This document shows positions 6,934 through 8,674 of a DNA stretch of 8,674 bases, piece after piece (the first letter of the stretch is position 1; each line of letters begins with the position of its first letter). The notes below the pieces were generated by a model that was not told the origin of the DNA, did not search any database, and was given only the letters and a program-made list of their open reading frames with translations. A program made the position numbers and the translations under genes. This DNA is from an uncultured archaeon (lineage in GTDB: Archaea > Asgardarchaeota > Thorarchaeia > Thorarchaeales > Thorarchaeaceae): positions 1-8,674 of the forward strand of contig CAZYLT010000043.1 of NCBI GenBank assembly GCA_964648855.1, read 5' to 3'.

Positions 6934-7947
6934 TTAAGGTTCAAGAGCTAACAGGTAAATAGAATTCCCTACAGATTGCACAATATCAATTTGGCCATTT
7001 CCATCCGTATCACCGTAAGCAATGTGGCTCTCAACAGCCTTTTTCGCTGTCTGTACTGTAAAATCTTCGTAGATTTGGACTCCCTCATAAGAGAGGATAG
7101 AAATCTTAGAATTCGCCTGACTCACCAGCATCTGTCCTGCTGATTTGCCATCATCATAGAATGACCCCACTCGCAATGACGTGATTTTCCCGGGTGCGTG
7201 AATTCTAGCTAATACACTGAGTGGTTTGGTGGCGGCCGATATCAATGAGATATCCCGCTCATCACTTATCCCCATAATCTCGTCAACTCTTCCCCCAGTT
7301 ATGTTTCCAGTAGATACAAGAGTTACTTCGCCCTTGATTTGTATCTTTGAAACCTCATGAAGTCGGTCGTCTTGATACTTGTAGATATACACATGCCCTG
7401 TGTCATCACCAAAAGCAAAGCGTGAATATGACATTCCCTTGCTATTGAGCGCTTCCATGGAGAAAATTGGTCGTTCCACAACTTTGTGTGCTAGTTTGTC
7501 TAGGCAGCCTCCAAACCAACCATAACACCGGAGTGCCTTGTCGTTTGTACTGACGATTACTTCTTTCTTATCATCAGCCATAACATTAGTGACAATCAAT
7601 GCCGTAGGAAGACTACCTAAGGGCGTACAATCTTCGACTATTAGTGAATCATCATCAAACCGTAGTACTCTGAGCTTGTTATCAAGGCATCCAACGACAA
7701 TGTTTGGGGCTCCATCACCATCTATATCTCCTATGTCAAAAGCAGCAACAGGATTAAGCTCATCCGATCTGGCAATTTCCTCAAGCTCGATTTTCTCGCC
7801 CTTGATAAAGTTGTGTACTCTAAGATTGCCCTCGACGGTACAGACAATTAGATTGTCTTTGCCGTCACCTGTAAGGTCATGAAGCTCAATTCCTGTGATT
7901 GGCTCCTTAAATGAGAAGTCTGATTTTATGGAGAGTTCTGGCATCAA
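6934..7947 (-). CDS. FG-GAP/VCBS-like repeat beta-propeller protein without signal peptide
   Basis: Roughly 45-50 aa repeats with DxxGDG-type loops: DLTGDGKDNLIV, DIDGDGAPNIVV, NVMADDKKEVIV, NITGGRVDEI, DTDGNGQIDIV. SD TGAGGT (7959-7954) precedes TTG 7947/ATG 7944. Confidence 0.82.
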   Translation of the reverse strand: MMPELSIKSDFSFKEPITGIELHDLTGDGKDNLIVCTVEGNLRVHNFIKGEKIELEEIARSDELNPVAAFDIGDIDGDGAPNIVVGCLDNKLRVLRFDDDSLIVEDCTPLGSLPTALIVTNVMADDKKEVIVSTNDKALRCYGWFGGCLDKLAHKVVERPIFSMEALNSKGMSYSRFAFGDDTGHVYIYKYQDDRLHEVSKIQIKGEVTLVSTGNITGGRVDEIMGISDERDISLISAATKPLSVLARIHAPGKITSLRVGSFYDDGKSAGQMLVSQANSKISILSYEGVQIYEDFTVQTAKKAVESHIAYGDTDGNGQIDIVQSVGNSIYLLALEP

Positions 7948-8114: not shown

Positions 8115-8522
8115 ATGTGCTTCAATGAGTTCTATCCATTTTTGAACGATGATCTATGGAATTGTAGTTTTCACGAATTATGTCGTGAGTTACAATCGTT
8201 CATTGATGAATTTGACGCTTTCACGCCAGAGCTATTCGCTCAGCTTCGGTTCGATCTATTTCGAAAGGCTTTGACAACGAGGTCCCGAATGGGGCTTTGT
8301 AGAGTTGCCGCCCATGCGGGTTACTGTTCCTTCTGTTCCGCTCTCTACAAAACAAAATACTGTCTGCTATGGTTTAAATTATTCAATCATATTCCAAGAA
8401 GAAGCATTCAGCGTTCTCCTCCTTGTATTCGAAAGGCCTACAGGAATGGAAGCATCAAAACAGTTGCCAACTTCCTCGATAGGATAAGTGTGCTGGATGC
8501 TCCCTTTTATGAATCTAAATAA
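8115..8522 (+). CDS. Hypothetical Cys-rich protein (135 aa), possibly metal-binding
   Basis: SD-like GAGTGA at 8103-8108, longest ORF in the interval, 8 Cys including C-x8-CxxC-x8-C and PPCI. Confidence 0.55.
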   Translation: MCFNEFYPFLNDDLWNCSFHELCRELQSFIDEFDAFTPELFAQLRFDLFRKALTTRSRMGLCRVAAHAGYCSFCSALYKTKYCLLWFKLFNHIPRRSIQRSPPCIRKAYRNGSIKTVANFLDRISVLDAPFYESK

Positions 8523-8536
8523 ACTATTTCTGACAA

Positions 8537-8674
8537 GTTGAGTGACCTCAACGTGTCCGAAACTTCTGTGTTCCGCCCTTCCCCTGCCACCGTCACCGCC
8601 CCCAGCATACCCGAAGGTCGCTGAGTCAGCAGGGGCTTTGTCCGTGCTCATCGGGATGGTATCCCTCCCACGGT
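8537..8674 (-). ncRNA. Unidentified structured RNA with a kink-turn (3' part; 5' end probably outside the window)
   Basis: About 62% GC by hand count (85/138), visibly higher than the flanks. Four consecutive hairpins on the minus strand, a canonical K-turn (G-GA/GAU-GA-G), and a cUUCGg tetraloop and G-U pairs that fix the strand. Confidence 0.65.

Follow-up and report, generated by a model that had tools for sequence, protein, structure and literature searches.

A K-turn-containing RNA at the end of a Thorarchaeota contig is probably part of the TnpB omega-RNA scaffold of a gene-less transposon derivative

Introduction

Stand-alone omega-RNAs that act in trans have been described (Altae-Tran et al. 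2023, PMC10691335). The same paper summarizes the gene-less OMEGA elements of Altae-Tran et al. 2021 as multicopy, mobilized sequences devoid of both effector and transposase. In Asgard archaea, the aCas1-TnpB loci (Cas1H-Asgard-1 and Cas1H-Asgard-2) carry a GTTCACTCA motif in a conserved non-coding region located after tnpB, and the hypervariable stretch that precedes this motif was proposed to be the guide (PMC10691335). A possible kink-turn (K-turn) was noted in the RAGATH-18 reRNA of IS607 (PMC11061315) and in an engineered ISDra2 omega-RNA (PMC13201667). In the literature searched, neither a report of a natural canonical K-turn in the ISDra2 omega-RNA nor a paper connecting L7Ae with any omega-RNA was found.

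The DNA analysed here (the window, 8,674 nt) is a whole contig (C43) of a genome (G000) that comprises 3.1 Mb in 62 contigs and belongs to an uncultured archaeon of the family Thorarchaeaceae. An initial annotation, made from the letters of the window, had proposed that the end of its minus strand encodes a novel L7Ae-bound RNA made of four hairpins, which might be an H/ACA-like guide, the RNA of a mobile element or an RNA belonging to a gene located just right of the window. The comparison of this locus with its relatives indicates that the RNA very probably represents the 3' third of a TnpB omega-RNA scaffold from Thorarchaeota, carried by a ~564-nt gene-less deletion derivative of a TnpB transposon.

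A repeated gene-less element at the end of the contig

Contig C43 breaks inside a repeat and the RNA lies at its very end; the 5' side of the RNA is therefore missing because of the assembly cut and not for a biological reason. When the last 375 nt were compared with the genome by BLAST, 22 matches were obtained; the element, complete or fragmentary, occurs at least 20 times, in many cases where a contig ends. The extension of internal copies gave a length of ~564 nt for the repeat, and the copy C8:17520-18083 was taken as reference. The window copy (8674-8514, minus strand) corresponds to the 3' end of the element (reference positions 403-564) and ~115 nt of it (reference positions 288-402) are unassembled. 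Its 5' part starts contig C6. This copy is gene-less, and no gene lies to its right beyond the window as had been envisaged. Likewise, full 564-nt copies lack any long ORF, contain neither an effector nor a transposase gene (the tnpB loci lie elsewhere in the genome) and have surroundings that are unrelated from one copy to the other. In the metagenomes of the microbial mats from which the genome comes, contig depth summed over positions 8500-8674 is ~10-45x that of the flank. The end of the element is marked by the loose ends of other copies, which start at 8512-8527.

A covariance model of the 3' domain detected the element in 21 of the 26 genomes sampled within the family, with counts that reach at least 21 in a single genome; matches in the genomes of the family number more than 200. 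In 26 other families of the phylum, represented by 124 genomes, the model gave no match with Infernal's stricter filters. For genome annotation, many contig breaks in Thorarchaeota genomes, and several of their 'orphan structured RNAs', are explained by the element.

The insertion has cut a host gene (Table 1) of which each of the 15 genomes sampled in the family has a homologue. The missing tail of this gene is encoded at C6:266-415, where it adjoins the 5' part of the element at the start of contig C6, and the last two codons and the stop of the truncated gene are supplied by the duplication and the element. Comparison with genome G001, from the same genus, gives the empty site (...TATGAA-TCTCAA-ATTGTT...) and a 6-bp duplication whose two hexamers match at 5 of 6 positions, the upstream hexamer being identical in occupied and empty sites. 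Mobilization is thus supported by an insertion that interrupts a gene intact in G001 and whose halves are found on C43 and C6. The empty-site allele was not found among the source metagenome contigs aligned to the window end, and a sample from a second year likewise has the insertion. Other copies are flanked by perfect direct repeats, and these 6-bp repeats (TCTAGA/TCTAGA, TGTAGA/TGTAGA and, at this site, TTGAGA/TTTAGA) disfavour a transposition of the IS200/IS605 type.

Some features of the surroundings can be added. The product of the interrupted host gene, split over two contigs, is a Cys-rich protein of ~180 aa without Pfam family. Elsewhere in the window (6934-7947, minus strand), a beta-propeller protein with FG-GAP repeats also matches the BBS2/BBS7 (BBSome) propeller models (E about 1e-9), a eukaryote-like signature typical of Asgard genomes. 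A GTCACTCTAC-like motif, which resembles GTCACTCAA of the terminal loop of the RNA, follows the right end at a distance of 17-85 nt in 5 of 16 copies, compared with a genome background of 0.013 per 150 nt. In G000, it is found at C8:18101, C20:966, C34 (~4559) and C1:208217 and on C31, in unrelated surroundings, and it is absent from the window copy (8514 and downstream). This motif could be a feature of the target site or could correspond to the 'variable stretch plus GTTCACTCA' layout of PMC10691335.

Secondary structure of the RNA

Two alignments were used, one made with MAFFT from 26 copies of 16 genomes (A1) and one based on a covariance model, which includes 50 distinct copies over a 138-nt model region. 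In the MAFFT alignment, the whole scaffold adopts one nested fold of 94 pairs, 52 of which show compensatory changes. Among the 50 copies, 91% of the cells of the 3' domain are paired, against 36-44% when the partners are slid, and 27 of the 30 pairs of hairpins 1 and 2 are changed on both sides; none of 500 shuffles matches the values observed for the 3' domain. The cells harbouring G.U or U.G largely outnumber those harbouring A.C or C.A (186 vs 32), which identifies the minus strand as the folding strand, in agreement with the initial annotation. All four pairings that it had drawn are present in the sequence; their fate in the comparison differs.

Hairpin 1 (Table 1) is indeed a canonical K-turn. 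Both of its stems covary, and GA is kept on both strands in ~47 of the 50 distinct copies, even in four that have diverged so far that their stems are wholly different. The pair closing the C-stem (-1b/-1n position) is G-C in 46 of the 50 copies, as in the sequence criterion of Kt-7-type K-turns.

Table 1. Features of the RNA, of the element and of its insertion site (window coordinates)
Feature	Position	Strand	Basis or remark
K-turn hairpin (hairpin 1)	8642..8673	-	sequence; covariation of both stems; G.A core, 50 distinct copies
K-turn NC stem CCGUG/CACGG	8673-8669/8646-8642	-	sequence
K-turn tandem G.A/A.G	8667-8666 and 8649-8648	-	sequence
K-turn C-stem GGGAU/AUCCC	8665-8661/8657-8653	-	sequence
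K-turn 3-nt bulge GAU	8652-8650	-	sequence
Former tnpB stop UGA (K-turn nucleotides L3, G1b, A2b)	8648..8650	-	14/14 TnpB-linked copies
Three-way-junction domain (hairpin 2)	8581..8635	-	covariation, both alignments
Hairpin 2 outer helix, 9 bp	8635-8627/8589-8581	-	8/9 pairs with two-sided changes
Hairpin 2 inner helix, 7 bp, variable cap	8625-8619/8607-8601	-	6/7 pairs with two-sided changes
Mini-helix CG-GUGA-CG with GNRA-type tetraloop	8591..8598	-	98% of cells paired
3-bp helix closing the K-turn and junction domains, 3' strand	8575..8577	-	A1 columns 322-324 with 429-431
CACAG, 3' strand of long-range helix	8566..8570	-	partner CUGUG ~170 nt upstream, off contig
Terminal stem-loop	8529..8560	-	per-sequence folds
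Terminal outer stem	8560-8554/8535-8529	-	79% paired, U-A/G-C exchange, moderate support
Terminal inner stem (hairpin 4), loop GUCA	8552-8547/8542-8537	-	per-sequence folds
GGTCACTCAA, counterpart of the published GTTCACTCA motif	8547-8538	-	PMC10691335
AT-rich right-end tail UUGUCAGAAAUAGUUUA	8520..8536	-	conserved across genera; overlaps the 8535-8529 stem arm
Flank directly 3' of the element, putative guide position	8494..8513	-	no similarity between copies beyond this point
Host gene cut by the insertion	8115..8522	+	homologue in G001 runs ~45 residues longer
Target-site duplication TTTAGA	8514..8519	-	partner TTGAGA at element 5' end, contig C6

Hairpin 2 stands as far as its outer and inner helices are concerned, since both covary heavily, whereas its '11-nt one-sided loop' has to be redrawn as a GNRA-capped helix of 2 bp (cap GUGA or GCGA; closing pair U-A in 28 copies and C-G in 20). 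As this loop forms a capped mini-helix, the hairpin-2 domain is a three-way junction, and what had been viewed as an exposed surface available for pairing is closed. The K-turn and junction domains are together closed by a 3-bp helix whose partner lies beyond the contig end; it is 97% paired and shows one-sided changes only. Hairpin 3 (8575-8558) does not survive the comparison: it displays zero compensatory change and is broken at one pair in 5 of 26 sequences, and it is unsupported because the CACAG of its loop is engaged with CUGUG farther upstream. In the 26 sequences, pairing of this long-range helix is complete (100%), and compensatory changes have arisen in it three times independently. 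Hairpin 4 is present in this subfamily, but in other genera the pairing occurs in a shifted register, inside a longer two-tier stem-loop. According to per-sequence folds, UUCAC(U) sits in the loop of this conserved two-tier terminal stem-loop, which displays UUCACUCA, and the GTTCACTCA motif is found in the terminal loop of nearly all copies. A terminal helix in which GGUGAGUGG, at the 5' end of the omega-RNA, would pair with UCACUCA was considered and rejected, as it comprises 4-7 mostly invariant pairs with uncompensated breaks (A1, inspected by eye).

Searches of Rfam with the window and three full copies, at both gathering and E-value thresholds, gave chance-level matches only (L20 leader, E 4.3; sR55, E 0.36), the sR55 match, alone in having E < 1, being both sub-threshold (19.7 vs 35 bits) and outside the element. 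The Rfam search called for by the initial annotation thus leaves a structured RNA without match to any Rfam family. Group II intron, HEARO/IscB and bridge RNA were also rejected, given the lack of Rfam match and the linkage to tnpB. The archaeal RNase P RNA is present in the genome.

The window also contains, on the minus strand (8379-8651), an open frame whose AUG is inside the GAUGA of the K-turn, with an ATGA stop/start overlap. A coding sequence across the region had been named as an observation that would speak against the RNA. The frame does exist (window 8651-8379, 90/97 codons), and 44 of the 50 copies have no stop in it across the 138-nt model region. It was rejected as a gene, as it lacks third-position periodicity, is broken by 1-nt indels and, where it was traced (window and C8), enters unrelated flanks past the element end. 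Codon periodicity is absent downstream of the tnpB stop and at most slight upstream of it. This open frame is probably a by-product of composition.

Link to TnpB

In diverged copies (C19, C28, C29 and many relatives), a tnpB-type ORF of 494-613 codons ends inside the region homologous to the element. Forty-nine distinct copies have readable loci, and in all 14 that are linked to TnpB the ORF stops exactly at the UGA of the K-turn, ~140 nt before the end of the conserved element. The linked ORFs of 557-612 aa match the Pfam models Cas12f1-like_TNB and OrfB_IS605 (E 1e-10 for PF07282), and a linked ORF matches the NCBIfam model guided_TnpB with an E value of 7.7e-24 and a score of 84.7 bits that is under the curated cut-off of 100. 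The linked proteins also match solved Cas12f/TnpB structures (PDB), including the zinc finger (CxxC) and the RuvC-III motif (NADxN).

The structure is interpreted as the scaffold of a TnpB omega-RNA because the linked tnpB genes end inside the element, at the UGA of the K-turn. Its placement is that of an omega-RNA, as it overlaps the 3' end of tnpB and extends to the right end of the transposon. The same holds for its layout, which consists of a conserved covarying scaffold followed, from the right end onward, by copy-specific sequence. Among the three guesses made initially, the RNA of a mobile element linked to tnpB was therefore the right one, tnpB ORFs ending inside the homologous region. 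The claim that the RNA is novel has to be given up: it would be the omega-RNA scaffold of the published Asgard TnpB group (PMC10691335) and not a new class.

The mini-element successively comprises a left end, a TATA-like box, a region of ~435 nt homologous to tnpB (the last ~100 codons of the gene and a ~140-nt non-coding tail) and a right end. The archaeal TATA-like box GGAGCTTAAATAG, which is conserved in five diverged gene-less copies, is located ~25 nt upstream of the tnpB homology, and its reading as a promoter is based on this distance, which is the spacing of archaeal promoters. According to tblastn, gene-less copies keep only TnpB residues ~513-613. The catalytic core of TnpB ends near residue 505, and the retained tail is thus located downstream of the core. 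As it retains only the region encoding the omega-RNA, the mini-element would be a deletion derivative of a TnpB transposon. Another decay product, at C1:207720-208152, consists of a scaffold copy preceded by a piece of tnpB (residues 448-500, 61% identity); more than one deletion has thus given rise to gene-less copies. Near solitary remnants of the left end (C2, C4 and C11), no ORF of tnpB size was found in the orientation of the element within 9 kb.

The tnpB genes of the genome are carried by contigs C19 (C19:41633-43474), C21, C28, C4 and C29, with at least four full genes. Their scaffolds are only 68-73% identical to that of the mini-element (BLAST), and their omega-RNAs score 89-129 bits with model R1, compared with 133-156 bits for most gene-less copies. 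Use in trans is unproven, because no tnpB gene of this genome has an omega-RNA close to that of the mini-element.

A protein of 959-1189 aa is encoded divergently from tnpB on C19 (C19:38000-41566; L035:1-3567, minus strand) and C28 (C28:5002-7878; L036:3-2879, minus strand), the two proteins sharing 27% identity over 942 aa. No match to this neighbour was found in Pfam, NCBIfam, the PDB sequence search or the ESM Atlas, and it is a candidate for an unknown integrase or partner of these elements. The Pfam model of Cas1 (PF01867) matches only C32 and C42, never beside tnpB; a very diverged Cas1 might nonetheless lie next to tnpB.

Alternative explanations and proposed mechanism

The element might be viewed as a plain miniature transposon, the hairpins of which would be ends recognized at the DNA level by a transposase, with gene-less copies encoding no functional RNA. 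In favour of this view, the element has a 6-bp target duplication and conserved termini, and many copies appear decayed (for example C20 and C6:105878-106449). However, the covarying region, ~435 nt, extends far beyond an end-recognition site, and the K-turn, the GNRA cap and the excess of G.U are RNA features borne by one strand. Furthermore, a TATA-like box is preserved at the right distance and the deletion retained exactly the omega-RNA part of tnpB. Taken together, these data make the plain transposon unlikely.

A second proposal is that the K-turn acts mainly on the mRNA of tnpB, as a roadblock or processing mark bound by L7Ae at the stop codon that would control termination or the cutting of the mRNA into omega-RNA, instead of being an architectural element of the nuclease ribonucleoprotein. 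It would account for the position of the stop codon within the K-turn in the 14 linked copies, and both translational regulation by L7Ae and self-processing by TnpB of its mRNA have been described (references in PMC12817955). However, the K-turn is equally conserved in ~35 gene-less copies, which have no ORF to regulate, and lies within the helices that close the scaffold; a role restricted mainly to the mRNA is therefore very improbable.

H/ACA guides have a pocket between their lower and upper stems, with the ACA about 14-15 nt from this pocket, near the 3' end. An L7Ae-dependent modification guide, either H/ACA-like as suggested by the initial annotation or C/D-like, is scarcely credible here: the canonical K-turn, the ACA that follows hairpin 1 and the perfect box-C string AUGAUGA found in many relatives would be in favour of it, but hairpin 1 (only 5 bp, the K-turn and 5 bp) has no pseudouridylation pocket, the RNA extends >120 nt further after the ACA, the D box is absent (AUGAUGA faces AGGA or GGGA instead of its partner CUGA), no Rfam snoRNA family matched the element, and the hairpin is embedded in the 435-nt nested fold and corresponds to the end of the tnpB ORF in linked copies.

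The interpretation of the RNA as part of a TnpB omega-RNA scaffold can be extended into the following model. The ~435-nt RNA would be transcribed from the promoter of the element itself, and the transcript would read into the flank (8513 and downstream), which would serve as guide. The RNA might then be used in trans by the TnpB proteins encoded on C19, C21, C28 and C4. The K-turn would kink the scaffold and would probably be clamped by the K-turn-binding L7Ae of the host. Judging from the sequence of the motif, binding of L7Ae is plausible, and the genome carries two genes of the L7Ae family, one of them at C2:55596-55874. In its full form, in which Asgard TnpB would be a three-part ribonucleoprotein with L7Ae clamping the stop-codon K-turn of the ~435-nt omega-RNA and gene-less copies supplying extra guides, the model is tentative and may well prove wrong. 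If it is true, an RNA-guided nuclease encoded by transposons would rely on the RNA-protein module that also serves the C/D, H/ACA and RNase P particles of archaea and eukaryotes, and would receive extra guides from the dozens of gene-less copies that a genome can contain. The presence of the K-turn at the stop codon makes a possible role of L7Ae in TnpB activity cheaply testable.

Comparison with known systems

As in ISDra2 and the IS200/IS605 family, the omega-RNA overlaps the 3' end of tnpB and runs to the right end of the element, the position of the guide being just outside. The well-studied scaffold of the ISDra2 omega-RNA is far smaller than ~435 nt. IS200/IS605 elements do not duplicate their target, have subterminal hairpins and encode a Y1 TnpA, whereas a 6-bp duplication is found here at a TCTAGA-like target; its description at this site is new, and so are the revised readings of hairpin 3 and the '11-nt loop'.

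The RAGATH-18-derived reRNA of IS607 TnpB is likewise a TnpB guide RNA with a possible kink-turn. It is bacterial, about 73 nt long and belongs to an Rfam family, and it has no sequence or Rfam match to the element. Kt-7-type K-turns bound by archaeal L7Ae occur in rRNA, RNase P and the C/D and H/ACA sRNAs. The motif described here shares with them, as judged from its letters, the 3-nt bulge, the tandem sheared G.A pairs and the C-G pair closing the C-stem. It differs by its location in the scaffold of a transposon guide RNA and by doubling as a stop codon. The building of the tnpB stop codon into a canonical K-turn is new.

The aCas1-TnpB loci share with the element their Asgard hosts, the GTTCACTCA motif after tnpB and the flanking repeats. 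They differ in that, here, the Cas1 model matches C32 and C42 and not the neighbourhoods of tnpB, and the tnpB genes of C19 and C28 are preceded by the divergent 959-1189-aa protein of no known family. In the copies analysed here, the stretch before the GTTCACTCA motif measures only 9-13 nt and makes up the 5' side of a stem, which suggests that the published 'hypervariable' stretch is a stem arm rather than the guide proposed in PMC10691335. The earlier literature found on the guide RNA of Asgard TnpB provides only a motif and a conjectured guide; the present comparison adds a secondary structure, backed by covariation, for the 3' domain of this RNA.

Finally, the description of gene-less OMEGA elements matches the organization found here, in that the scaffold adjoins the transposon end and the effector loci lie elsewhere in the genome. 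The Thorarchaeota element is distinguished from them by its ~435-nt scaffold, its archaeal promoter box, its 6-bp target duplication and its Asgard host.
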